A DNA stretch of 38,405 nt, from contig MU004202.1 of NCBI GenBank assembly GCA_010093605.1, positions 569,560-607,964 of the forward strand, in the 5' to 3' direction. Position 1 is the stretch's first letter. The number at the start of each line of letters is the position of its first letter. Below are positions 23,417-38,405 of this stretch, one piece after another. The translations under genes and the position numbers were made by a program. The notes beneath the pieces are model-generated. The model saw only the letters and a program-made list of their open reading frames with translations, was not told where the DNA came from and made no database searches. This DNA comes from Lophium mytilinum (Eukaryota).

Positions 23417-24179
23417 GTCTCTTCAACGCTGTTTGAGGAGTTCTAGAGTGCTTCCAGACATCCCAGCAAATCACGAACTCGCCAACTTAGGCGATTCGGA
23501 GCCTAGCTCTACGAAGTAGCCCAATGGTAGAGCATATGGATGGGTAAGCGGAGAATGTCTATGCAGGAAGTGCAAAATGATGTGAAGGGATGATCGACGG
23601 ATTATGTGAGTGTGATGAAGTTTAATAGGTGATCTAGAGGATACAGAATGCGAATCTTGTCCCTTCGCACTAGCTAGGAGTCATACAAGACTAATAGCAT
23701 CTTCACAGAGATGGAATTGGTCTGGTCACGTGGTATTATCAATTGGAGGAGTGAAGACGAATAGAGATCTAAGAGGACTTTAGCGATATTGAGAATATTT
23801 AAGAGGGATATGGATCGTGCGTGCAGTAGACTTCTTGATAGTCATCGATCGTCATTCAGTTTCGACACATGATATTGATCTTCGTGGCTCAGACTCCCGC
23901 TCGAGCTCCATGACACATCAAACATCATTCTCATATGTACTAGGATCTAGTATCGTAGACTTAACAAGTTCGGAAGATTTCACTCGCAGCTTAAGAATTT
24001 GAAGTGACTGCGGGACCTATGGCGCCTCTTCAAATTCGACTTGACCGCGGGGTGCGTGTGAAGAGCGTCCAAAGGCGAACCTCGAAAACATTAGGCGAAA
24101 GACTATTCATTGCGTAGTCTCAAAAGAGTCCTTATCTTCTCTCCACTCCCATCGCGTCGTCCATTTGTACAGCTCTCCA

Positions 24180-24857
24180 TTATCTCGCCTCAAACTGCAT
24201 CATTCTCCTCGACCTTATCTTATACATAGCTTTACACCCACAAGCCCTGCACTTCAAAGCCTCACGCACCCTCCACTCCCCGTTCACAATCCCATCAAGT
24301 GCCCTCACTTTCACAAACATATGGCAGTCGGTGCACTGGTACCACAGCTGGCCCTTCTCGAGCGGGATATCTTTCAAGTCCGTGCCTGGGCCAACCATAG
24401 AACGAGGGTCTTGGTCTGGATGATACATCGGGTTCCCAGCTCTGGATTCGGTGTATGTGTCGATTTCCCGCGTGTTTGGTTTGAATCGCTTGGGTGCAGA
24501 GGGGTCGTAATCAAGCTCGACGATGTTGGTGTCGGCCCATCGGGGCGAGGGGGCGTTGCTCGGGTCGTAGTCTTCGCCGAAGGAACGTTCGAGGGCTTCT
24601 GCTTCTGGCGTAGTGGTGGGTTCTCCTTCGTCATGTCGATGATATGGTTCCGGTATTCTAAGCTTCGAATCTTCGTCCAGCCCTTCTGCTCCTTCGCCTT
24701 GTCGCTGTTGTAACGGATATTCTCGATGATCAGCTCCGGGATGCTGCCAAGCTTGTTCTGGCGCTGGTGGCTCCCACGCTGGCTGCTGTGGGCCAGTGGG
24801 GATGTTCTCCGCTCGTGGGTGCTGCATCAGGCTGGTGGGCGGCTGGTTTGAGGCCAT
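24180..24857 (-). CDS. Rpb12/RPABC4-like zinc-ribbon protein with a long N-terminal extension (225 aa)
   Basis: The C-terminus YQCTDC...LKCRACGCKAMYKIRSRRMMQFEAR mirrors the Rpb12 consensus Y.C..C...IRC..CG..ILYK.RT.R.VQFEAR. First ATG is at 24857. Confidence 0.75.
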   Translation of the reverse strand: MASNQPPTSLMQHPRAENIPTGPQQPAWEPPAPEQAWQHPGADHREYPLQQRQGEGAEGLDEDSKLRIPEPYHRHDEGEPTTTPEAEALERSFGEDYDPSNAPSPRWADTNIVELDYDPSAPKRFKPNTREIDTYTESRAGNPMYHPDQDPRSMVGPGTDLKDIPLEKGQLWYQCTDCHMFVKVRALDGIVNGEWRVREALKCRACGCKAMYKIRSRRMMQFEAR

Positions 24858-25140
24858 CGTTAGCGGCGTCCTTCGGTGATGCCCTGCAGGATACACGAGG
24901 GTGGAAGTTAGTTTCACATTGAAGCAAATGGCTAACGTCGACCCAGAAATATCTGATTGAAACAAAGAAATTCCCAACTAAGATTCAGCGCACGATGGAT
25001 GGGGATGGTAGCGGGGCGTATGACAAAGGAATGAAGGCGCCAAGACATTCCTCAGATGCAAATGATCTTGGAACTACAAACATTGAGGCCATCCAGACTG
25101 TTATAACACAGCAACAGACGACAAGTCTGAGCTCACGAGC

Positions 25141-27004
25141 TCATGACTCCGTAAGTAGGATTTGATTTGAAGCGTCCTGCTTCAATTCCACACTGAATCG
25201 GTCATCGAATGGCCACTGTTTCTTGCCCCTACTGTCACATTAGCACTGCGCGAAATAAATCCTCGCAAAATCAAGGACTAATTACGCTTTCGGATTCTTT
25301 GGCATGGGAGTCCACTTGATTCCATAATCTCTGAGCCATTTCCAGTACCAACGCTGTGCGAGGCCCAGTTGGCCGGCAAGGGAAGCCATTCTAGCCATCC
25401 GTTTTGATCTGGAAACTCGCAACTGGGCGTACTCTTCTAACGCCGTGCGAAAATTAGCGTCCGGGGATGCGGGTTGATTGAGAAGGCAATTGGCGAGAAC
25501 GGTGGCGTCTTCAATTGCGAAGGAGGATCCTGGAATGAGATCAGTATAAGAGAAGGATATGACTAAGCCAAAATTTGGAAAGTCTAGACCAAAAACTGCA
25601 CGGGTACCCCCCTCGATCACTTGGCGCCGTCGTGGGAGGTAGCCCGACTAGCCGATATTGAGTCAGTCGAAAGATCTACACCATATGATCTTCAGATTGT
25701 ATTTGGACGCCGAAAACCACCTAGGCAAGAGAGTGCGAAAACTTGAGTTGCCAGGCTGCGGGCTTGGAACGGAGGAAATGTATGAGGGAAATGAGCCTAC
25801 CTTGGCCACTACTCGGAAGCATCAATCTGGAAGCATCACCAATCAACACTACATTCCCGCATTGGATCTCGTTTGCTTGCCAGACTCGCTGCCGGAGCGG
25901 ACTTCGTACAATGCGCTCCGATGCTGCGATCAGTCTCCCGAATGATCCTGTGGCTGGATGGTACACGCCGGCATGACGGCGGAGGATGTCAATTGTCAAG
26001 TCCTTCGAGTAGGCGCCAGCTATGATTCGAAACTCCCAACTAGATGTCGTATTTCCTTTGACCTCGGCGTCAAAAATTTTAGTGCCTTTTGGTGCCGAAT
26101 AATCCGATGGACTCGTTTCTGGAATGATGAGATCCCATCGAATCTTCCCACCCGGCAGCGGCGACGTCGACAAAGTCCCGTGGTCCAGCCAGATTCCGTG
26201 CGTATCGTCTAGAACCTCCTTTTCTACTCCTTCCTCAGCCAGCGGTGCGATCTCGGGCGAGGAGATCCCGTAAATCCCCGTTGCGCCCATAAAATCTGGA
26301 ACCCACCTCTCCTCCGCCGTACTCTCATCCCTCCTCCTCAAAATCGTCCTTCGAACTTCCGACCATGCACCCTCCGCTCCGACCAACAAGCTGACGTCCT
26401 CGCTTTTTCCACCCTTGAAAGACACTCTTACGCCGCCGGCCCCGCTAATCTCTTCTACTTTTTCCAACTTTCTTTTCCAGACCACTTCCCCACCTGACTC
26501 CAATACCTTCTTTAGTAATATTTCTTGAAGATCACGCCGCTCGATGATGCGCATATTCGTACCCAGCTCCGTGCTCCAGGTCGGATCTTGCATGCGATTT
26601 AAACGCACAGCTGTTGCTGGGTACGCTCGCTCTACCGATTCTCCCGGATTCAGAAGAGGAGAGCCATACCCCGAGCGCCAAAAACTAGCTCCCGTAAACT
26701 CTTGGCTCCGTAAGTCGATAGCAGCTCGCAGGCCGAGATCGTAAAGAGGCGCGAGACCATTCCCTGAGAGGGCTATCGCTGCACCGGCTGTTTGGAGGTT
26801 TTCTGCTGGAATAGCAGTGGGTGGAGACGTCGAAGAAGCTTCGGACGCCGAAGGAAGGTGAGCTGGAAATGGATTGGGGGTTTGGTCCCAGAGTATAGGC
26901 GCATACCGTTCGCGGAGGATGGGATGGGCGAGGATTTGTAGGGCAAGGGTAGGGCCTGAGATTGCGGCGCCTACAATGCCGATCTTGTGGCGAACGGCGG
27001 CCAT
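25141..27004 (-). CDS. FAD-dependent monooxygenase (group A, salicylate hydroxylase-like); 3 exons
   Basis: IGIVGAAISG dinucleotide motif, LLVGAEGAWSEVR (DG-like) and VVLIGDASRLMLPSSGQG|SSFAIEDA (GD motif). Introns 25530-25800 and 25232-25285; TGA at 25141. Confidence 0.88.
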
Positions 27005-27674
27005 GAAGACTCGAGCCGAGGAGAAATTGGAAGGATTTATGAAGCAAATGCGAAATACTTAAAAAGCCGGATCAGAAAGCTATTGGAAAAAATGTAGGAC
27101 ACGAGGAAATCAGATTAGATGGAGTAGTAGTTGTGCCACAAATCTGTCGCCTTGGACTGTACAACTGAATTGTAGAAAGGGGGACGCTGTGCAAAGGCCA
27201 AGGAGAGTTTGGAGTATGTGAAAGAATGAATGTGGAAAGGTGCAGAAAGAAAGAAATAGCCGCTGCGTATGAAAGTCGCCTGCTTCTGATCACTAGCCCG
27301 AATTAGTCTTCTAGTGGTACGACATATTGCAGCAGGCATGTCTGATGAAGGAAGTTTGGAGCTGGAGGTCGTCAGCTCCTATAGTTCTAGGTTACGAGTC
27401 AAGGTCAAGAAAAGAATACACGCTACGCGACTAGAGACTAGCTTCGGCGGGGAAGCGAGCTGTCAGGGGAGGACGGAAGGCAGCAACTCCATAAGCTCAA
27501 CTCCGAATCCCGCAGATAACGCAGAGGAAGATGCGATATCGCCGCAGAAACTGCGGTATTGCCGTCCGATTGGAATAAGTTATAGTATCCAAGCCCTCCC
27601 ATCAATGTAAGTGTGCTACGCAGAACATTCCCGTGACTTCTGCAGGCGCCGTATGAGACTCGATTTTCATCGGC

Positions 27675-30600
27675 ATGTCGTTCTATAACCTCACCGACGT
27701 CGCTTCATTTTGCACCGCTCACGCCGACAATGTCTTCGGCCCGGTAGTCAGCCCTGTTTGTCGCCATGGCTTTGATTTTACCTTGTTGTTTGAGCAGTCC
27801 ATCCTTTCAATTGGACCCTCGTCCATCTTCCTTTTGCTCGTGCCTTTGCGACTGTTCTGGCTTTACCGTTCCAAAACTACTGCCAGACCTTCGTTCAGCG
27901 TCTACCTTGGAAAAGCGGTAAGACCTCCGTGATATCTAGCCTCGTAACATCGAAGACCCTCCGGCTTACGAAACCGAATATTCAGGTTGCCATCACTCTT
28001 CTTGTCAGCCTACAATTGGCCCAGCTAATACTCTGGGCATCGAATCCCTCGAGCCGGACTCCGGCTTCGGTACCTTCTGCTGTCCTCTCTTTCGTTTGCG
28101 CACTTGTAATATACCCACTGTCCTATCTGGAACAGACTCGCTCCGTCCATCCCTCGACTCTTTTGGAACTATACCTTATATCATCTTCGGTGCTTAGTAT
28201 CCCCCAAGCGCGCACGCTATTCCTACGACAAGATGACCTGCCTATCGCAGCCATTTTCGTGGCTAGTATTGGAGCTACGCTCCTGCTCTGGACCTTAGAA
28301 GCTCGAAGTAAGACGAAATCACTCAAGGAACCGTATAGAGAGTACCCTCCCGAGGCTACTCGGGGCGTTTGGAATCGAACGTTCTTCTGGTGGTTGAATA
28401 CCTTGTTCGTTTCGGGTCTGAAAAGGCTCCTTTCTATGAACGACCTCTGGAAGCTCCCCCCAAGTATGTCCTCAGAGCGGTTGCGAGACGCTATGCAAAA
28501 ATCTTGGGATCAACGACGTAAGTAACGACTCAAATGCCTTGAAAGTCACAACGCTAATACCTTTCAGCTATGCCAGAAGGACGGCGATCTCTGGTCTGGG
28601 CATCCATCAAGTGCCTCCGGTGGCCCCTCCTCTCTGTCGTAATCCCTCGTATCGCATTGATCGGCTTCAACTACGCTCAGCCTTTCTTGATCAGTCGCGT
28701 AATCAGCTTTGTAGGGCAACCGCGTGCCTCTCAGAACTACAATGACAGTCTTGGCTTGATCGGAGCTGCCGCTCTGATCTACACCGGCGCAGCTGTAAGA
28801 TTATTTGATTCCTCAAAAAGAGGCTAGATTGCTGACTGAACAGATGACTACCGTGCTGTACATGCACAGGCTATATCAGTCAATCACCATGTTTCGTGGA
28901 GCTCTGGTTGGGCTTGTCTTCAATAAAACCCTTGTGCTCCGCGATGGCGTGTATGACGAGTCAGCGTAAGTGTAGTAGCCTATCGAGTATAAGCACTCAA
29001 CTCACACTAATCTCTTCCTGCAGTGCAGTAACGCATATGTCCACCGATATCGATAGGATTGCCGAAGGGATGAAGAACATGCACGAGACTTGGGCTCGCC
29101 TTATCGAGGTGGCAATTGGCATCTGGCTACTCTCAACCCAGCTAGGCGCAGTCTCTATCACACCTATCGTGATAGTAGTTAGTAAGTTACACGCGTCGTT
29201 TCCCTCATTATCCCAGACTCCATGAAAGACTAATGCTGCCTTCAGTCTGCGCCGGGATAAATACATGGGCTGCGAAGCAGTCAAGTATTCGACAGAAAAT
29301 ATGGGGCGCGTCCGTACAAACTCGCATTGGAGGGACCGCTTCCTTGCTGGGTTCCATGAAGAGTGTAAAGATGATGGGACTGGCAGACTTGATGTCCGAC
29401 AACATCTTAGCCGACCGTGTCCACGAGATGGATACAGCGAAAGGGTTTCGATGGGTGCAAGTTTTTGTTAACTCCGTAGGTAAGTGACCCCACAGGCCTT
29501 AAAACGTTTTGCCGTTTCTGACTTTGAAAAGGGTACACTCCTATGATTTTCGCACCCGTCCTCACTTTTGTTGCGTACGAAATCAAAGCACGGATCCAAG
29601 GCTCAAGCTCTCTATCTACGAACCAAGCTTTGACCTCGCTGGCTACTGTCACTTTGCTAACGCACCCTGCGTCTATACTGCTGACGTCCATTCCTGAAAC
29701 TGGCGCTATACTAGGATTGTTCGATCGTGTCCAAGGCTTTCTAGTTGCATCCTCTTGGGAGGACACAAGGGGAAATCTAAGAAACAGTGTCTCTCCAAAT
29801 CAGGACCCATCACAGTCAGAGTCAGACCTAGAGCTTCAAGAGATCAAGGGTTTCCAGCGTCCTTTAGTTTCTTCGTCAGCATTTCCTGGCCGTCCAAAAA
29901 CAAGCGCAATCTTCATGACTGGCATAAGTGTCCGACCTTCGCCGACCTCCACACCCGCAATCACCAACGTCAGTATGCAGCTTCAAGGTTCTTCGACGAC
30001 TATCCTATCAGGACCAGTAGGATCGGGTAAATCTACCCTCCTGAAGGCTATACTCGGGGAACTTCCTTTGGACGCCGGCAAGATTTCTGTGTCCTCTACA
30101 CACGTTGGGTACTGCAGTCAAACACCGTGGATTTTGAATACCACGATTCAACGGAACATCTGCGGTCCCGTCCAGGTTTCCAAGATTGACGAAGCGTGGT
30201 ATCAGACTGTTCTGACGGCCTGTAACCTCGTTCACGACTTGCTTAGATGGGAACAAGGCGATCAAAGTATCCCGGGCTCTGGAGGATTGGCACTCAGTGG
30301 CGGGCAGAAGCAACGTGTTGCTCTTGCACGTGTGCTGTATGCAAAGCCGGATATCGTGCTTCTTGACGACGTATTGAGTGCTTTGGACAACACTACGGAA
30401 CGGCAGGTTACGAACAGTCTCTTTGGCCCCGGCGGCCTCTTCCAGACACTAGGATGTACAGTGGTGCTGGTCACTCATTCTACTCGTCATTTCCATCTCG
30501 CCAATCACATTGCGATCCTTAGCAAAGACGGCACAGTCGCTCAGCAGGGAAGCTTCGAAGAATTAAAAGCACGGGAGGGGTACATCAAAGGTCTCCTCTT

Positions 30601-32434
30601 AGACCCGAACCACGGAACGGACGAGATCGCTTCATCAGCGCAAATCATCACGCAAAAGCGGCCAGTTGTTAAAGGTGTCAGTGCAAACGATGTTTCAGAT
30701 CTGACTCGTAAGACTGGAGATGTTGCCGTTTATAAATACTATTTCAAGACGACCAGCCGATTCGGAATTGCATGCCTTCTCGCCGCCATAGCGTCCTACT
30801 GCTTCTCCTTCTTCTTTCCACAGCTGTGGCTCGTGTGGTGGACAAAGGCGAACGGACATGAGAATGGGAAGTACATCAGTGTCTACGTGTTATTGGCGGT
30901 GATAGCTTGGATATCTAGAGCATCTATGCTGGCGTTTCTACTGCTCTGGGTTTCCCCGATATCATCGATCAAACTGCACCAGATCCTCCTTCGGACGGCG
31001 ACCAGGGCTCCACACTCATTCTTCACGAAAACGGACACTGGAATCACGTTGAATCGATTTAGTCAGGATATTGGCCTGATCGACCGCGTACTCCCGCTAT
31101 CAGCTGCGCGCGTAGCCCTCTCCTTCGTGATCATCGCCCAGGCAGCGCTGATCGCTCAAGGATCCAGTTATATGGGGATCACCCTTCCTTTCATATGTCT
31201 TGCCACTTACCTCCTCCAAAAAGTCTATCTTCTGACATCAAGGCAACTTCGTTTCCTCGACTTGGAAGCCCGAAGCCCTGTATACACCCACTTTCTTGAA
31301 TGTCTAGAAGGGCTATCCACTATCAGGGCCTTTGGCTGGGCAAATGCCGCACAAGAGATAATGATGAAACGTCTCGACATCTCTCAGCGGCCGTATTACC
31401 TTATGTTTTGTCTCCAGCGATGGCTAGCCTTAATCCTAGATCTCATGATTGCCGTAATTGGTGTGATCGTAATCGCACTGGCCGTAAGAGTTCCTGGCAC
31501 ATCTAGCGGCGCTGCTATTGGAATCGCACTCAACAACGTCCTTGGATTCAACCAGTCACTCCGCCTGTTAATCGACAGCTGGACGCAATTCGAGACTTCC
31601 CTCGGCGCCATCGCACGTGTCAAGAATTTCGAAGCTGAAGTGCTCCCCGAAGACAGACCTGAGGAGATAGCAGAAGTACCAGCATCATGGCCAGAGTCTG
31701 GTGCTATAGATTTCGAAAACGTCTCCGCTTCTTACGGCCCCGCTGCACCCGCTCTTAACAGCATCTCCCTTTCTATCACGCCCGGCCAAAAGATCGGTAT
31801 CTGTGGCCGCACTGGCTCCGGCAAATCATCCCTCCTCCTAACCCTCTTCCGCCTTCTCGACCTTTCCTCAGGCAGCATCAGCATCGACGGCGTGGACATC
31901 TCCACGATCCCCCGCGAAACGCTCCGGACTCGTCTAACCTGCATCCCGCAAGACCCCTTCATCCTCCCCACCACCGTTCGTCGGAACCTCGACCCCGCCT
32001 CCGCGTCATCAAAATCCAGTCCAATCCCCGACAACGACCTCATCGCTGCTCTCGAGCGCGTTCATCTTTGGCAGCCCATCCTCACGCGTGGCGGCCTGGA
32101 TGCACAGATGAAAACGACTCCGCTGTCAGCAGGGCAGCAGCAGCTATTCTGCCTCGCACGGGCAATGCTACGAAGGACGAGGATCCTGGTTCTCGATGAG
32201 GCAACGAGTAATGTCGACCGAGAGATGGATCAGCTGGTGCAGGGGGTATTGAGGGAGGAGTTTCGGGAGAGAGGGTGTACGGTTATCATGGTGGCGCATC
32301 GATTGGAGACGATTCGTGATGCGGATGTGGTGGTGAGAATGGGGGAGGGGAAGATATTGGATGTTGGAACCCCGGAGAAGATATTGGGGGAGGCCGGGAA
32401 GATTGGAGGAGGTAAGGGATCCCTGGGAGAATGA
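27675..32434 (+). CDS. Full-length ABCC/MRP-type ABC transporter (TMD0-TMD1-NBD1-TMD2-NBD2); ~7 exons
   Basis: N-terminal FGP...FDFTLLFEQSIL; Walker A GPVGSGKST and GRTGSGKSS; signatures LSGGQKQR and LSAGQQQL; Walker B LLDD and VLDEATS. About six GT-AG introns between 27918 and 29531. Confidence 0.95.
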
Positions 32435-32657
32435 CGGGTCTGCGCTGCTCCAGGCTCTGAGATATAGCTCCCGTCGGTTTCCCCTCGCAAGACTAGGCGT
32501 ACCTATACTAGTATCAAGCCATCGCTAGCAACTTGAGGCGCAATGATAAACCTTTACATCTTGCTCTGGATTTTTTGTTTAGTTCGAGAGGCTCTCAAGG
32601 CTACCTTCACATCGTACCTAGCCAGCTCATATGATAGCATTCCTTTAACGACTTACC

Positions 32658-33620
32658 TCAAGCTTGCCGCCCCTTCGGCTCACCCCCCGCGATAGCATCA
32701 ATCAACGTCTCCACCGCCGCCAACCCACTCCTAACCTGACACTCCACCGTATCTCCACCAACATGCGGCATCATAACCAAATTCTCATGCTCCAAAAACT
32801 CGCGATACACCTCCAACGTCGGCGGCTCCACCTGACACGCATCCAACCCCACCCCCCAAAACCTCTTCGCCCTCAACGCCTCCAACAACGCCTTCTCATC
32901 CACAATCCCGCCCCTCGCCGCATTAATCAAAATCGCCCCCTCCTTCATCCTCCCCATCTCCTCCCGCCCAATCAAACCCCTCGTCGCCGCCGTCAACGGC
33001 ACATGCACCGTTACCACATCCGCCACCTCCAACAACTCCTCCAGAGTCCCCACCCGCTCATGCTCGATCCCCGGCCACCCGTCCGCAGGGAAATACGGAT
33101 CATACGCCACGACCCGCGCCTCCATCGCGCCGCGCCACTTCTTCGCGACCTCTCCACCGATATTCCCCATCCCCACCACCCCCACCGTTGTCCGAAACAG
33201 GCTTTTCGAGAACCACTCCGCCCGCAGCAGCTTCTCTCCCCTGCGAATCGCGCGGTCCATCTCGCACACGCGCCGCGCGACGGCGAGCGCGAGGGTCAGG
33301 GAGAGCTCGGCGACGGCTTCGGCGTTGACGGCGGGGGTGTTGTAGACGCGGACGCCGTGGCGCTTGGCGGCGGCGAGGTCGATGGCGTCGACGCCGACGC
33401 CTTGCTTGACGACGTATTTGAGGTTTGGGGCGGCGGCGAAGTCGGCTTCTGTGAGGGTGGTGCGGGCGCGGATGAGGATGGCGACGGCTTTTTGGGGCCA
33501 GTCGATGTGGGCGGGGTCGGTGAAGAGGATGGGGGACATGGAGGGGTGGGATTGGAGGAGGGCGAGGGCGGCTTCGTTGTAGTGGCCGAGGACGTAGACG
33601 GGGGTGGGGGGTTGGGACAT
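32658..33620 (-). CDS. NAD-dependent D-isomer-specific 2-hydroxyacid dehydrogenase (320 aa, intronless)
   Basis: GVGVDAID, GVVGMGNIG Rossmann motif with following YD (NAD-type Asp), HVPLT..T, INAARG (Arg), VEP (Glu), PHVGG (His). No ACT domain. Confidence 0.93.
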   Translation of the reverse strand: MSQPPTPVYVLGHYNEAALALLQSHPSMSPILFTDPAHIDWPQKAVAILIRARTTLTEADFAAAPNLKYVVKQGVGVDAIDLAAAKRHGVRVYNTPAVNAEAVAELSLTLALAVARRVCEMDRAIRRGEKLLRAEWFSKSLFRTTVGVVGMGNIGGEVAKKWRGAMEARVVAYDPYFPADGWPGIEHERVGTLEELLEVADVVTVHVPLTAATRGLIGREEMGRMKEGAILINAARGGIVDEKALLEALRAKRFWGVGLDACQVEPPTLEVYREFLEHENLVMMPHVGGDTVECQVRSGLAAVETLIDAIAGGEPKGRQA

Positions 33621-34289
33621 GGTGGGTGTGTTGATTATAGAGAGGTTGGGAGTTGAGGTTTAGGAATTGGGGTTTGAGGTCTGAGGCTTGAGGTTTGAGG
33701 TTTGAGGCTTAAAAAATGCGGTATGAAATGAGTATATTTCAGGGTACTATATGTAGTAATATGTCATGCGAGCTGCGGGAATGATTCATCGAGGTGTGGG
33801 GAATAGACCCTGGAGGTTGATAAGGCTTATACCGGACTAGGGCTTGTATGAAGACAAGCTTTGCTGGCGTCATTTGGGAGCGGATGAGGAATCTTGTGCT
33901 ACGTTAATTTGATAGGGGCAAGATGCTCGATACGTGTGTTGTTGATGCAAGACGGGCGGGGATTAAACTCCGCTACGCTGCCGACCTTGCCGAGTGGCCT
34001 CAGTCTAACTTTAATGTAACCGTGAGCCTGGTGGGTCCTCTGCAACACCAAGGTAAACGTCTATAAAGGTATTTGAAGCCCGTGCTGTCTTTCTTATTGC
34101 ATGTTCGTAGTCTCTGCCTCCCTTATAACTTGAGTCTCCTTTTTCTTTCAATCCTCAACTTCTCGTCCATCTCCGTCAACCGCTGACTCACCACCATCTT
34201 TCTCTCTCCTGAAAATTTACACATATTCGATACCCGTCTTCAAGACTCTTCCCCCTATCCCAGCCTCATCCATCAACACCACCACCACC
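33621..34289. promoter_or_regulatory. Shared divergent promoter region (669 bp)
   Basis: Lies between two head-to-head ATGs. TATAAA at 34062-34067 is followed by a pyrimidine-rich tract leading to ATG 34290. Confidence 0.6.
33668..33709. repeat. Six degenerate 7-bp tandem units (TGAGGYT)
   Basis: TGGGGTT TGAGGTC TGAGGCT TGAGGTT TGAGGTT TGAGGCT, just upstream of the dehydrogenase ATG. Confidence 0.8.
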
Positions 34290-35177
34290 ATGCCCCCCGC
34301 AACAGCCCAAATCGCCGCCCTGCGCGCCGCCCTCGCCAACACCTCACGCCCCGCCATCGCCATGGCCGCCCACAACCCCCTGACCGCCAAACTCGCCCAC
34401 GAAGCCGGCTTCTCCGCCATCTGGGTCTCGGGCTTCGAGCTCTCTGCCTCCTATGCCGTCCCCGACGCCTCCATCCTCCCCGTATCCACCCACCTCGAAA
34501 CCACCCGCGCCATGGGCGAAGTGCAGCCCCTCCCCCTCATCGCCGACCTCGACACCGGCTACGGCAACGCCGTCAACCTAACCTACGTCGTGCGCCAGTA
34601 CGAAGCCGCCGGCGCGGCCGCCATCGTCATCGAAGACAACGTCTTCCCCAAGGAGAGCAGCCTGCGCGCCGGGCCGGCGGGCGCGAAGCGCAAGCTGGCG
34701 GGCATCGCCGAGTTTCAGGGGAAGATTGCGGCCGCGAAGGCGGCGAGTAGCGTGTTGGTGATTGCGCGGACCGAGGCGTTGATTGCGGGGTATGGGGAGG
34801 CGGAGGCGTTGGAGCGGGCGGCGGCGTGGGCGGAGGCGGGGGCGGATGCGGTGTTGATCCATAGTAAGGCGAAGACGCCGGATGAGGTAGTGAGTTTCTG
34901 TAGGAAGTGGGATGGGAGGGTGCCTGTTGTGATTATCCCGACGAATTACCCGCAGTTGGGGTTTAAGGAGGCGGGGGAGTTGGGGAAGGTGGGGTTGGTG
35001 ATTTGCGGGAATCATACGGTGAGGACGGTGGTGGAGGCGGTGAGGAAGACGTATAAGAAGATACTGGAGGAGGGCGGGATTGAGGGAGTGGAGGGGGATA
35101 TTGCGAGTGTACAGGAGGTGTTTAAGTTGCAGGGGGATGGGGAGATGAGGGAAATTGAGAAGAAGTTTGTGAGGTAA
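34290..35177 (+). CDS. palA: Phosphonopyruvate hydrolase-like enzyme (PEP mutase/isocitrate lyase superfamily), 295 aa, intronless
   Basis: Blocks AMAAHNPL.AKLA..AGF, SGFELSASYAVPDA, STHLE..RA, IADLDTGYGNAVN...VV.QYEAAGA.AIV.ED..FPK..SLR, EFQGKIAAA, EALIAG.G, KTPDE, PT.YPQL, KVG.VI.GNH and LQGD..MR match, as I recall it, Variovorax PalA/PPH. It lacks the EDK-x5-NS motif of true PEP mutases. Confidence 0.82.
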   Translation: MPPATAQIAALRAALANTSRPAIAMAAHNPLTAKLAHEAGFSAIWVSGFELSASYAVPDASILPVSTHLETTRAMGEVQPLPLIADLDTGYGNAVNLTYVVRQYEAAGAAAIVIEDNVFPKESSLRAGPAGAKRKLAGIAEFQGKIAAAKAASSVLVIARTEALIAGYGEAEALERAAAWAEAGADAVLIHSKAKTPDEVVSFCRKWDGRVPVVIIPTNYPQLGFKEAGELGKVGLVICGNHTVRTVVEAVRKTYKKILEEGGIEGVEGDIASVQEVFKLQGDGEMREIEKKFVR

Positions 35178-35845
35178 GCTTGAGCGGTGTCTGATGAAGT
35201 CAACGCAACACGAAGAGATCCTAGGTATAGAGCTATGTTTGCTGCATTTTTGACATCTTGTCCATTTCAAGTCAACTATCGTTCCTCCACTCCAGACTTC
35301 AAAATTCAGGGCAGTGCCAGCACTGAATATGCCCGCAATTGTAACACTGCTCCCATGTGTACATGTCAGTTTTGCACCGATGGCATCTCCAAATCGCGCC
35401 GCGGGGAACTTGGTAAGTTGGTCGATACAGGCCTGGGTGGTCGTGTGTGCTTTTGTTCATTTTGATAGCTTGCTTAGGAGGTGATTTGCTAAAGGTTTTG
35501 AGACCTGGGAGAGGGAAACGAATTTACTGACCGTTGAAGTCCTATTAGAGGAGTTAGAAAGTATTTATACCCTACAGACAAGCCGCCAAGGTGGCTGTTG
35601 CTGGTCTGGCTGGTACAGTACATACGTTGTCGCCACGCCGCGTTCTGAGCTGGCCTTCTGCAAGGATGCTGTACTCTGCCAACTCATTCAGCAACGACCA
35701 AGAAAGCAACACATGTATTGGCGAGACCTAATCAAACAGTGATTAATCGAACAAATCTGACTATCACGTAGTGTACGTGAGGTACATAATTAAGCTGCTC
35801 GTGCCTTCCTACATATTTCCTAGCAGCAAGACTAATGGGTGAATT

Positions 35846-36038
35846 TACAGGGTATATATTTTGGGGAGGGATAAGCGCACACCCCCTAATTCCTCCACGC
35901 ACGCCCCCTAATTCCTCCACGCACACCCCCCTATCGTCTAATCGTTTTACCACCTTCTAATTAGCTTAGATTACTGCTCTGGAGCCTCTAAGTAGCTTAC
36001 TTAGCTTACGCGTAGTTTCTAAATGCCTACTCTATATG
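35846..36038 (+). mobile_element. Possible left end of a Tc1/mariner-like DNA transposon, truncated
   Basis: TA + CAGGGT start, 22-bp subterminal tandem repeats, TpA enrichment, and an ATG at 36023 cut off by the next repeat. Confidence 0.3.
35876..35931. repeat. 22-bp tandem repeat x2.5 (CGCACRCCCCCTAATTCCTCCA)
   Basis: Units at 35876-35897 and 35898-35919, partial unit at 35920-35931. Confidence 0.9.
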
Positions 36039-37226
36039 TATCACGTCGTTCCTCAGCATTCTCTTGGTAGTCATCGAGGTCAGGAGTCATCACGTGCACG
36101 GACGTCACGTGATCTCCGGGCCGAGGGTTCTTCCGGCGCCCGGGGTTCTGCCGGCGCGCACTCAACTACGTAGCAGGCTCGTGGCCGGAGCCTCTCTCCT
36201 CCACGCAACCTCGTTAATAGAAATACAACCCTTTTCTTAGCCATAAACCTAATACTAGGTTGCGTTATTCTTTAAAACCTAGAAATATAGAAATATAGAA
36301 ACCTTAATTTCTTTTTATATAGCTATACTACTATACGCGTATATATCTATATAGGTACTACTAGCTTTAAGATTTAGCTATATAATTACTTAATTACTAA
36401 TATTAAAACTAATATATTTTCTTTTCTTACTTACTTTAATACTTTCTTTTTCTTTTCTATACTTATATAAAGCCTAGGCCTTACTATAAATAACTAGGTA
36501 TAACTAACTATATTAATATACCTAGTAGATAACTTTATAACTCTAATATTCTATAAAGTAAGAGGGGGGTTAGTTACTAGAACCTTAATAAGATATAGAA
36601 TAATACTTAGAGTAATATCTTTAAGAAAGTAGATAAGAAAGTACTACTAATAGACCTTAACTACTTAGCTTTATATATAAAGAATTAATAAAACTATCTT
36701 ACTAAGTAGTATAAGCACGTTAGTAAACTACTAAATATAGCTATAGTAGAGGCTCTTAATATCTAGAACTTCTATACTATTAGTATAGACTCTTAGATTA
36801 TAGAAAGCCCTATTACTATTATATTATTTCTTAGTATTCTCTTAGTAGTTATTAAGGTTAGAGGTTATTATATATATAGATGTTATATAATCTCTAGGCT
36901 AAGAGTTCTTCTAGCGCCCGAGGTTCTACTAGCGCCCGGGGTTCTACTAGTATATACTTAACTATATAGTAAGCTTATAGCTAGAGCCTCTCTTTTCTCT
37001 ATATAACCTTATTAATAGAAATATAACCCTTTTCTTAGCTATAAACCTAATACTAGGTTGCATTATTTTTTAAAACCTAGATATATAGAAATATAAAAAC
37101 CTTAATTTCTTTTTATATAGCTATACTACTATACGCGCGCGTATCTATATAGGTACTACTACTAGCTTTAAGATTTAGCTATATAGTTACTTAATTACTA
37201 ACCTTAAAACTAATATATTTTCTTTT

Positions 37227-37264
<38 letters not shown>

Positions 37265-37642
37265 CTAAAACTCTCTTCTTATTTTCTATACCTATATAAA
37301 GCCTAGGCCTTACTATAAATAACTAGATATAACTAACTATATTAATACACCCGGTAGATAACTCTATAACTTTAATATTCTATAAGGTAAGAGGGGGGTT
37401 AGTTACTAGGACTTTAATAAGATATAAAATACTTAAGGCAATATCTTTAAGAAAGCGGATAAGAAAGTACTATAGATAGACCTTAACCGCTTAGTATTAT
37501 ATATAAAGAACTAATAGAACTATTTTACTAAGTAGTATAAGTATATTAGTAAGCTACTTAATATAGCTATATTAGAGGCGCTTAATATCTAGAACTTCTA
37601 TACTATTAGTATAGACTTCTAGAATATAAAAAGCCCTATTAT
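36039..37642. repeat. Head-to-tail ~780-830 bp direct repeat x2 (36039-36816; 36817-~37642), LTR-like
   Basis: The copies align throughout and differ mostly by C>T/G>A changes, e.g. tatcacgtcgttcctcagcattctcttggtag vs tattatattatttcttagtattctcttagtag. Both end in aagccctatta. Confidence 0.9.
37227..37262. repeat. (CTTA)9 microsatellite
   Basis: Nine units in copy 2; only two at the equivalent position (36426-36433) of copy 1. Confidence 0.95.
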
Positions 37643-38405
37643 CTTTAACCTTCTTCTAGACCTGCATAATATTAAGAACCTAACTATAAAGCTAGAAGAT
37701 ACTATATTCTAGAGCTTATTTAAGTTCTATTAATAGGTAAACTCTAAGCCGCTTAAAGCCTTTAAACTACTACGCGCTCTAGTTAAGAGTACTAACATCT
37801 ATATTAATAACTATAGCGCCGGCTTAGAGAAATAGAAGAATATATTTATAAACCTTTATAAGTAGTTTAATAATATAGATAAGATTATTATAGACCTAAA
37901 GATCTAGCTTAATAATTCTAAGCTTAATCTCTAGGCTATCTAGGCTTATATATATAAGCTCTAATAATAATAATAGTCTAAGCCTACTAAGATAACATCT
38001 AAAGGGCCCGTTTATTTTAATAATAATAAGCGGCGCAATAATAATATTAACTATTAGTAGATAAATAGCGGAACTAGAGGATAACTACTAGATAGGCCTA
38101 ATAACTATAGTTATAATAGCTATAATAGCTATATAGAGCCTAGCTATACTTCTTCTATACTAAATATAAACCTCTATAGTAGTAGTAACTAAGCCCGCCG
38201 CTCTACCTCTCTATATAATAACTAATTAGATAATTAATATTATAATAATAGCTACTATAATAGCTATACTCTACTATATACTTAGCTACTATTATTAATA
38301 TTCTACTAGCGTAACTACTACTAGCTAGACCTAGTTATATTTAATAGAGAGAATCTAGATATATATCTAATCTAGCGTAGTAAGGTTCTAGCTAAGATCC
38401 GCTAT

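Follow-up and report, generated by a model that had tools for sequence, protein, structure and literature searches.

A transcribed phosphonopyruvate hydrolase-family gene of probable bacterial descent, and its dehydrogenase neighbour, in the fungus Lophium mytilinum

Organic phosphorus includes a large pool of phosphonates, whose breakdown is, to our knowledge, known almost wholly from bacteria. The nearest described relatives of the gene treated here are phosphonopyruvate hydrolase (PPH), represented by PalA of Variovorax sp. Pal2, and phosphoenolpyruvate (PEP) mutase, also called Ppm or PepM. The mutase motif is given as EDKX5NS in the accessible part of PMC8942020, and the accessible part of a review (PMC3266647) ascribes the divergence of hydrolase and mutase to one active-site substitution; the same source, in its 2012 survey, records PPH in 3 of its sequenced strains. 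Here, we describe a PPH-family gene in a 38,405-nucleotide stretch of the Lophium mytilinum genome (assembly GCA_010093605.1, contig MU004202.1, positions 569,560 to 607,964 of the forward strand), the whole of which we call the window. On balance, we consider it probable that this open reading frame (ORF) is functional and transcribed in the fungus and encodes a PPH-family enzyme of old bacterial descent, mineralising phosphonate together with an adjoining dehydrogenase (DH), and this is our best explanation as a whole. Automatic annotation has already given the gene the name "phosphonopyruvate hydrolase" or "PEP phosphomutase" in the database entries of several fungal genomes, and PMC7749757 speaks of a putative PPH in Sclerotinia. 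Our literature search, which had limited coverage so that absence is no proof, found no paper on the origin or the partner of the fungal gene. The novel content is the conserved DH partner and the altered gating loop.

Enzyme family and gating loop

The PPH coding sequence occupies positions 34290 to 35177 on the + strand as a single exon encoding 295 aa, from an ATG start to a TAA stop. Its protein matches PEP_mutase (PF13714) of Pfam over residues 12–259 (E = 8.8e-53). The top NCBIfam model is that of phosphonopyruvate hydrolase, TIGR02321, at 359.4 bits over profile positions 5–289 of 290; the PEP mutase model TIGR02320 gives 244.2 bits, short of its cut-off of 319.55, and the methylisocitrate lyase (MICL) model gives 136.4. 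In line with these scores, the top solved relative is the Variovorax PPH 2DUA (E = 7.7e-99; residues 9–294 against 5–289 of 290), and PEP mutases come next (8.8e-69 and 3.2e-57). Fungal-type members of the superfamily match more weakly, namely 2,3-dimethylmalate lyase 3FA3 (7.2e-20), oxaloacetate acetylhydrolase (OAH) 3LYE (1.1e-17) and isocitrate lyases (ICLs; 3.7e-05 or weaker), and the ICL Pfam family stays at 16.2 bits, under its cut-off of 26. An earlier reading of the letters alone, hereafter the sequence-only reading, had stated that the protein follows bacterial PalA/PPH almost end to end and does not resemble native fungal ICL, MICL or OAH. Both statements are borne out by the comparison of PPH and PEP mutase models that it had proposed, and the best matches are to PPH, not to a different superfamily branch.

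The AlphaFold model of the protein, made with a 90-sequence alignment, has a pLDDT of 96, and its top fold match is again 2DUA (E = 4.6e-35, TM 0.91/0.95, rmsd 1.7 Å, 55% identity). Across 90 PPH and mutase sequences, residues W45, S47, D59, E115, S124 and R160 are invariant and residues D86, D88, K121 and H191 are conserved in 90% or more; all of them are kept in the window protein. We take W45, S47, D59 and the others to be the metal and substrate residues of PEP mutase and PPH structures. From this conservation, a TIM-barrel enzyme of the tetramer type would bind phosphonopyruvate by way of a divalent metal that the conserved Asp and Glu residues hold in place. Taken together, these matches indicate, at the level of protein sequence, that the gene is of PPH type and not a native fungal gene of ICL, MICL or OAH type.

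The active-site gating loop (codons 115–137, EDNVFPKESSLRAGPAGAKRKLA; positions 34632 to 34700, + strand), defined by alignment and column counts, carries a Ser at the position that we take to be Thr118 in PalA and Asn122 in Ppm, together with K117N, D122E and a 3-residue insertion. The column of this residue, Ser123 in the window protein, holds S in 40/41 fungal-group rows and 67/71 alphaproteobacterial rows; T is found in 40/42 of the remaining bacterial PPH rows, and N in 4/5 mutase outgroups. Specifically, PalA-type bacteria have the motif as EDKX5TS, and the alphaproteobacterial and fungal clades have it as EDKX5SS. At the same position the window protein reads EDNVFPKESS, followed by the three extra residues, and EDKX5NS is absent. 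Because the motif holds Ser rather than Asn, and hydrolase and mutase are said to differ by one substitution, we read the fungal proteins as phosphonopyruvate hydrolases. They are predicted to hydrolyse phosphonopyruvate: with Ser replacing the mutase Asn in the gating loop, the enzyme would break the C–P bond to release pyruvate and phosphate.

Several points weigh against this prediction for the Mytilinidiales, the order of Lophium and Mytilinidion. We know of no enzymology on any fungal PPH. The equivalog cut-off of TIGR02321, 374.4 bits, is narrowly missed by the proteins of the window (359.4) and of Mytilinidion (351.4), and both Mytilinidiales proteins thereby fall short of a score passed by the 14 other fungal-group members tested (384–416 bits); outside the fungal group, two alphaproteobacterial proteins reach 427–438 bits, and the bacterial metagenome representative P0124, at 361.3, is also short of it. 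In addition, the altered loop (K117N, D122E and the three added residues) is modelled at low confidence, residues 121–130 being the sole low-confidence block of the AlphaFold model (mean pLDDT 71). Since the loop is both altered and poorly modelled, the activity may have shifted. A copy that has changed function or is drifting through this loop, and is no longer a phosphonopyruvate hydrolase, would suit the missed cut-off, the long Mytilinidiales stem branch (0.46) and the N at position 117, which is found in 2/41 fungal-group rows and 0/113 bacterial PPH rows and comes here with D122E and the insertion. We regard such a loss of the original function as unlikely, because the frame is intact and the gene transcribed, the residues invariant across the PPH and mutase alignment are all kept, the partner gene is retained at 88% identity, and the PPH proteins of the two genera are 93% identical. 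That two genera have kept it so alike, and that it is transcribed, speaks for a gene under constraint. The Mytilinidiales form is derived, and its specificity may be altered.

Probable bacterial descent and history in fungi

In a careful maximum-likelihood (ML) tree (LG+C20, 51 rows, 294 columns, 5 mutase-type outgroups), the 46 PPH rows, with the window protein among them, form a clade of their own that excludes the mutases (support 100/97). Within this clade, a metagenome lineage of the P0124 type branches off first, followed by a Pseudomonadota clade (96/96) and then by a third clade (100/99), which includes the bacterial locus L065 with the canonical operon of LysR, ABC transporter, PalB-like aminotransferase and PPH; PalB-like genes stand just upstream of PPH in 16 of 104 bacterial loci. 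The last split is a pair (82/78) formed by an alphaproteobacterial clade (99/91) and a 22-row group (91/92) that holds every named fungus, and three bacterial lineages branch below this pair. In a larger FastTree, the fungal group contains 0/80 metagenome loci and 0/17 bacterial genome loci, the 80 being the loci returned by a metagenome scan with P0021 as query, among which the contig of P0021 itself did not appear. The fungal group also has residues of its own: Val46 is present in 36/41 fungal-group rows and 0/113 bacterial PPH rows, and Thr72 in 36/39 fungal-group rows, with Met at this position in 69/71 alphaproteobacterial rows.

A fungal group nested in bacterial PPH diversity is the pattern expected of one transfer from a bacterium to a fungus. 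The phylogeny proposed in the sequence-only reading, with nesting within Proteobacteria as the sign of horizontal transfer, accordingly came out in favour of its claim, the fungi falling inside Pseudomonadota PPH diversity at supports of 82/78 and 91/92. Bacterial descent of the fungal PPH by horizontal transfer, as an old, shared and domesticated gene, is supported by these comparisons. As the tree suggests, a palA-type gene would have entered an ancestral member of Pezizomycotina once, long ago and on its own; its donor would have been a bacterium related to the present alphaproteobacterial PPH carriers, and none of the pal operon would have come along.

On the other side of the balance, the fungal monophyly and the alphaproteobacterial sister link are moderately supported, in a FastTree of the top matches the fungi form a grade around the alphaproteobacterial clade, and 26 of the 41 fungal-group rows are taken to be fungal solely by their clade and signature residues. 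The grade in FastTree and the alphaproteobacterial sister group would also agree with a PPH family that is anciently eukaryotic or mitochondrion-derived, or that passed from fungi to Alphaproteobacteria. We judge such an origin very improbable: three bacterial lineages lie below the alphaproteobacterial-plus-fungal pair, all named eukaryotic carriers among the matches listed are Pezizomycotina, and an identity of 62–69% would be high for a split of mitochondrial age.

Among the matches listed, the distribution of the gene appears patchy. Of 2,632 proteins found at E <= 1e-20, the closest is that of Mytilinidion resinicola, at 93% identity. Carriers were compiled from two listings of the best 120 matches and a look-up of 20 clusters, one of which gave an organism name (Cadophora), with taxonomy checked for seven of them; among the matches listed there are at least 16 named Pezizomycotina in three classes, comprising Dothideomycetes (Mytilinidion, Melanomma, Lophiotrema), Leotiomycetes (Mollisia, Coleophoma, two Cadophora) and Sordariomycetes (Phaeoacremonium, Clonostachys, Lecanicillium, six Fusarium/Neocosmospora). 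Apart from Mytilinidion, the fungi in these lists (15) show 63–68% identity to the window protein, and the range overlaps with that of the closest bacteria listed, which are Alphaproteobacteria (Acetobacteraceae, Xanthobacteraceae, Hyphomicrobiales) at 62–67%. The nearest ESM Atlas PPH cluster is 99% Bacteria. PPH is rare in bacteria, being found in 6 of 401 sampled Pseudomonadota genomes at E <= 1e-80, with 4 above the cut-off.

The PPH gene is part of a fungal chromosome and not contamination. An unspliced transcript contig of run X1 (34058 to 35526, + strand; 1469 nt) lies over it colinearly, with no gaps or joints, and extends ~232 nt 5' of the ATG and 349 nt 3' of the stop. Run X1 is labelled "RNA?" only, and we take it as RNA-derived because its contigs skip 8 intron-like segments in neighbouring genes. 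Two of these, at CT..AC joints (25227–25285 and 25528–25800), are in a spliced FAD-dependent monooxygenase gene (24167 to 27365, - strand; Pfam FAD_binding_3 on ORF 25724–27004), and six, at GT..AG joints between 27916 and 29530, are in a spliced ABC-transporter gene (27531 to 32434, + strand; Pfam ABC_tran and ABC_membrane on ORF 29543–32431) that is convergent with the DH gene. On the other side of the PPH gene, an AT-rich block (36200 to 38405, the window end; no strand assigned) carries the signature of repeat-induced point mutation (RIP): its GC is 0.27, its TpA/ApT 1.84 and its (CpA+TpG)/(ApC+GpT) 0.08, compared with 0.63–0.74 and 1.16–1.29 for the two indices in the rest of the window. 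The index thresholds behind this call are values that we assume. X1 contigs give no coverage of 36025–38405, which is uninformative. A Pfam scan of the window ORFs adds a fungal setting (STE3 pheromone receptor, DUF7730, protein kinase, ABC transporter), and the Mytilinidion orthologue is located on a 2.06-Mb scaffold. Contamination had been called unlikely in the sequence-only reading, on the ground that spliced fungal genes and RIP'd DNA flank the gene, and each of these features is seen here. Downstream of the PPH gene there is also a 22-nt repeat (35876–35930; 2.5 copies, 93% matches), with loose ends of a transcript contig at 35863 and 35943.

No foreign composition is seen at the synonymous sites of the window PPH gene, which bear a host-type C-to-G skew flip. 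In its first ~40%, C3 is 0.76–0.80 and G3 is 0.08–0.12; in its last half, G3 is 0.65–0.80 and C3 is 0.02–0.08. The GC3 skew is -0.75 over the first 40% and +0.84 over the last 50%; the corresponding means for 103 bacterial PPH genes are -0.14 and -0.04, and the flip exceeds that of every one of the 103. Over positions 31800–35200, the PPH gene, the DH gene and the last ABC exon are each C-rich and then G-rich on the coding strand, with a single flip per intronless gene. When the window is cut into 192 bins of 200 nt, |skew| is 0.45 or more in 12 of them, and 9 of these fall in 32201–35200. C-rich gene starts and G-rich gene ends are a described fungal habit, according to the accessible part of McLean & Tirosh 2011 (PMC3315797), and the host-skew argument is based on this source and the 38-kb window. 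A host-type skew at synonymous sites argues for long residence of the gene. Two other readings of the flip, as a trace left by RIP or by a foreign origin, were considered and rejected; on average it is not seen in the 103 bacterial PPH genes. Likewise, two bacterial loci whose PPH skew change is 0.94 (L062 and L065) were considered as hidden fungal contigs and rejected, as they are dense bacterial operons.

These data bear on the time of arrival. An intronless gene that is rich in GC (GC3 0.83, against 0.50–0.77 in other window ORFs) and lies 1 kb from RIP'd DNA could be taken for a recent, lineage-specific bacterial transfer into the window genome, linked to the neighbouring repeat DNA. Such an arrival is already contradicted and hardly credible, given a 93% identical orthologue in another genus, a fungal clade over three classes, a best bacterial identity of only 62–67% among the matches listed, the host-type skew at synonymous sites, and a neighbouring DH gene of fungal ancestry that is intronless, equally high in GC3 and subject to the same skew flip. 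Because the fungal group spans three classes and the gene bears the host skew mark, the transfer appears to be old. The sequence-only reading had proposed a probable horizontal transfer, and had taken the absence of introns and the adjoining repeat DNA as signs of acquisition. Its claim stands as to bacterial origin, nested and beside Alphaproteobacteria, and falls as to the recent, repeat-linked arrival that it implies. The two signs themselves are uninformative: since the gene is shared across fungi and has host-type skew, neither the missing introns nor the RIP'd neighbour says anything about arrival time.

After its entry, the PPH gene would have been kept in scattered lineages only, and its history there conflicts with taxonomy. 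Mytilinidiales PPH groups with Helotiales (99/87) and not with Pleosporales of its own subclass, a placement that would not fit vertical descent. In an approximately unbiased (AU) test, a tree constrained to unite the four named Dothideomycetes is 38.4 log-likelihood units worse (p-AU 0.00135), and with the rows of assumed fungal origin left free it is 36.6 units worse (p-AU 0.0072); the group was set by taxonomy, and the test was chosen after the tree was seen. A broad fungal orthogroup congruent with the species tree, which would have spoken for vertical inheritance, was looked for, and the named carriers among the matches listed were few and scattered, with a tree in conflict with taxonomy. 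Transfer between fungi, old paralogy with loss, and long-branch attraction are possible causes of this conflict. The first of these would mean that, after a single entry, the gene, perhaps with the DH, moved between classes from fungus to fungus and did not descend vertically with many losses, which concerns the later history only. We regard it as quite possible, though we would not expect it: the link to Helotiales, the rejection of Dothideomycete monophyly at both p-AU values and the few named carriers known speak for it, and against it stand the long branches of Mytilinidiales (0.46) and Mollisia (0.58), between which attraction is possible, the same pattern expected from ancient paralogy with differential loss, and the choice of the test after the tree was seen, even if taxonomy fixed the group.

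The dehydrogenase partner and a proposed pathway

Head to head with the PPH gene, and divergently transcribed from it, lies an intronless gene for a D-2-hydroxyacid DH of the phosphoglycerate dehydrogenase (PGDH) type (32658 to 33620, - strand; 320 aa), as assigned by Pfam, NCBIfam and solved relatives. The DH matches 2-Hacid_dh_C (1.5e-48) and 2-Hacid_dh (2.4e-22) in Pfam, scores 255.5 bits on the PGDH model TIGR01327, under its cut-off of 454, and has PGDHs as its best solved relatives (1WWK, 1.8e-49). The two genes share an intergenic region of 669 bp (33621 to 34289, no strand assigned), which is a putative bidirectional promoter. This region contains a tandem array of ~8 TTGAGGT copies at 33653–33710. 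None of the 15 CACGTG sites of the window, a phosphate-starvation signal, falls in it (0/15), which is weak evidence either way. At the other end of the DH gene, one X1 contig (27531–33147) runs through the ABC gene, past its stop (32434) and into the 3' part of the convergent DH gene (32658–33147), from which the 3' ends of the ABC and DH genes overlap or abut in the RNA assembly.

The closest DH homologues, at 59–88% identity, form a 15-row clade (SH-aLRT 100) apart from the widespread fungal paralogues. This clade holds every DH homologue that shares a contig with PPH, as judged by identical contig size; specifically, five pairs of DH and PPH homologues have exactly equal longest contigs (2,061,775; 11,369; 77,703; 120,288; and 2,461 nt). 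In bacteria, a DH-like gene is present in 4/104 PPH loci, at 33–39% identity and never within 2 kb, with at least 3 kb of flank in 61/104 loci. Given bacterial PPH loci with no adjacent DH and a fungal DH clade, we infer that the pairing of DH and PPH is a fungal invention. Co-transfer of the DH with PPH was considered and rejected on these grounds, as the DH has fungal relatives and the bacterial PPH loci have no DH adjacent. Among the window ORFs scanned there is no aminotransferase or LysR gene, the neighbours of PPH being the PGDH-like DH and the ABC exporter-type gene; an operon context is not expected in a eukaryote.

The kind of DH suggests a substrate. Phosphonolactate is the phosphonate analogue of 3-phosphoglycerate. 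VlpB, the enzyme proposed for the phosphonopyruvate/phosphonolactate step, belongs to 2-Hacid_dh_C, the Pfam family of the DH, according to the accessible part of PMC8942020. From this analogy and the common Pfam family, we propose a route from phosphonolactate to phosphonopyruvate and on to pyruvate and phosphate. The DH would oxidise phosphonolactate to phosphonopyruvate, which is the weakest step of the proposal, and irreversible hydrolysis by PPH would pull this oxidation forward, such that the two enzymes together would form a phosphonate-mineralising module. In its full form, the proposal is that fungi made bacterial palA into a new two-gene module, in which a dedicated PGDH-like subfamily oxidises phosphonolactate, or a relative such as the oxidation product of 2,3-dihydroxypropylphosphonate, for PPH. 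This full form we offer tentatively, as a possible but rather doubtful account.

The following considerations count against it. Linkage of DH and PPH beyond the window is deduced from equal contig sizes and not from DNA; among the 120 DH matches listed, the linked-DH clade has no member from the named Hypocreales and Pleosporales PPH carriers; and in the literature found, use of phosphonolactate by any fungus is undocumented. Separately, a protein of the Eurotiomycete Capronia epimyces (P0359) lies inside the PPH-linked DH clade, with no Eurotiomycete PPH among the matches listed. Either a divergent PPH escaped the search, or this DH subfamily has a wider distribution than PPH.

The same gene pair could also be read in the direction of synthesis, as a small fungal phosphonate biosynthetic cluster in which a PEP mutase and the DH make phosphonolactate in the manner of Ppm and VlpB (a valinophos-type branch). 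PEP_mutase and 2-Hacid_dh_C are the exact pair used to classify VlpB-type biosynthetic neighbourhoods (PMC8942020, accessible part), the active sites of PPH and mutase are nearly identical, with divergence by one substitution, in the accessible part of the review (PMC3266647), and in Phaeoacremonium minimum a PEP-mutase-domain gene has been taken for the key gene behind BGC_137, a phosphonate biosynthetic cluster (PMC6099105). We consider biosynthesis improbable, slightly more so than a change of function in the Mytilinidiales copy, because EDKX5NS is replaced by a motif with S for N in 40/41 fungal-group rows, the window protein scores 244.2 bits on TIGR02320 against a cut-off of 319.55 and 359.4 on TIGR02321, and it falls within the PPH clade, in which the bacterial genes belong to catabolic pal operons. 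The protein of Phaeoacremonium minimum (P0020) itself carries EDKX5SS, and its 407 bits on the PPH model exceed the cut-off. The BGC_137 cluster call may therefore rest on a hydrolase, if its gene is that of P0020.

Other contexts of bacterial PPH were observed in the course of these comparisons. In loci L002, L004, L006, L007, L015, L031 and L054, a gene for a ~685-aa protein that fuses a class II aldolase with a short-chain dehydrogenase ends 3 nt before the PPH start. The fusion is partial in L041 and gives a weaker partial match in L008, belongs to one subclade of the alphaproteobacterial sister group, and has no PalB-like gene beside it. The arrangement appears to be a second bacterial context of PPH, as yet undescribed, in which an oxidoreductase supplies the enzyme in place of a transaminase. 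An amidase gene comes after the canonical phosphonoalanine operon (LysR, binding protein, ATPase, permease, PalB-like aminotransferase, PPH) in L065 (3949–12651) and L062; it does not belong to this operon as described in the accessible part of the review.

A transcribed PPH gene kept in scattered fungi of wood, soil and plants would mean that some fungi own a hydrolytic C–P cleaving enzyme of bacterial descent, and the conserved DH partner offers a concrete and cheaply testable hypothesis on which phosphonate these fungi use. If the two-gene module is true, it would be the first phosphonolactate catabolic route and the first hydrolytic C–P cleavage pathway defined in fungi, and the fungal "phosphonate biosynthetic clusters" called on this PEP_mutase-domain gene would be catabolic. 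The locus also advises caution in two respects: intronless genes near repeats are not to be read as recent transfers, and a PEP_mutase-domain gene in a fungus is not automatically a phosphonate biosynthesis gene.

Comparison with described systems

The native fungal enzymes OAH (3LYE) and 2,3-dimethylmalate lyase (3FA3) have the superfamily fold in common with the window PPH and are distant from it, at 1.1e-17 and 7.2e-20. PhoF of Fonsecaea, a fused PhnY*/PhnZ oxygenase, resembles it as a characterised fungal C–P cleaving enzyme made of parts otherwise known from bacteria, according to the accessible part of PMC10574752, and differs from it in its unrelated folds, its oxidative chemistry and its substrates of the aminoethylphosphonate type.

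The valinophos-type pair of Ppm and VlpB comes closer at the level of the locus, in that the two Pfam families stand side by side and a phosphonopyruvate/phosphonolactate pair has been proposed for it (PMC8942020 and PMC12871164, accessible parts). There, however, a mutase drives synthesis, whereas here a hydrolase-type C–P enzyme is paired with a proposed oxidation followed by cleavage, and the two DHs are likened by Pfam family and not by the sequence of VlpB. PEP mutases themselves (Mytilus 1PYM/1M1B, Streptomyces 5UNC) share with the window protein the fold (TM 0.92–0.93), the metal and substrate residues and 38–45% identity; in contrast to them, the window PPH has no EDKX5NS, is below the TIGR02320 cut-off and lies outside the mutase clades.

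The closest described system is PalA of Variovorax sp. Pal2 (2DUA, 2HJP, 2HRW; EC 3.11.1.3). The window protein departs from it in having Ser for Thr118 and a loop with K117N, D122E and 3 extra residues, in a TIGR02321 score just under the cut-off, in its eukaryotic host, and in a locus where a PGDH-like DH adjoins the gene and the operon of LysR, transporter and PalB is absent. On the other hand, the two proteins share length, fold, an end-to-end alignment, a clade and the active-site set, and both carry a hydroxyl residue rather than Asn in the gating loop.

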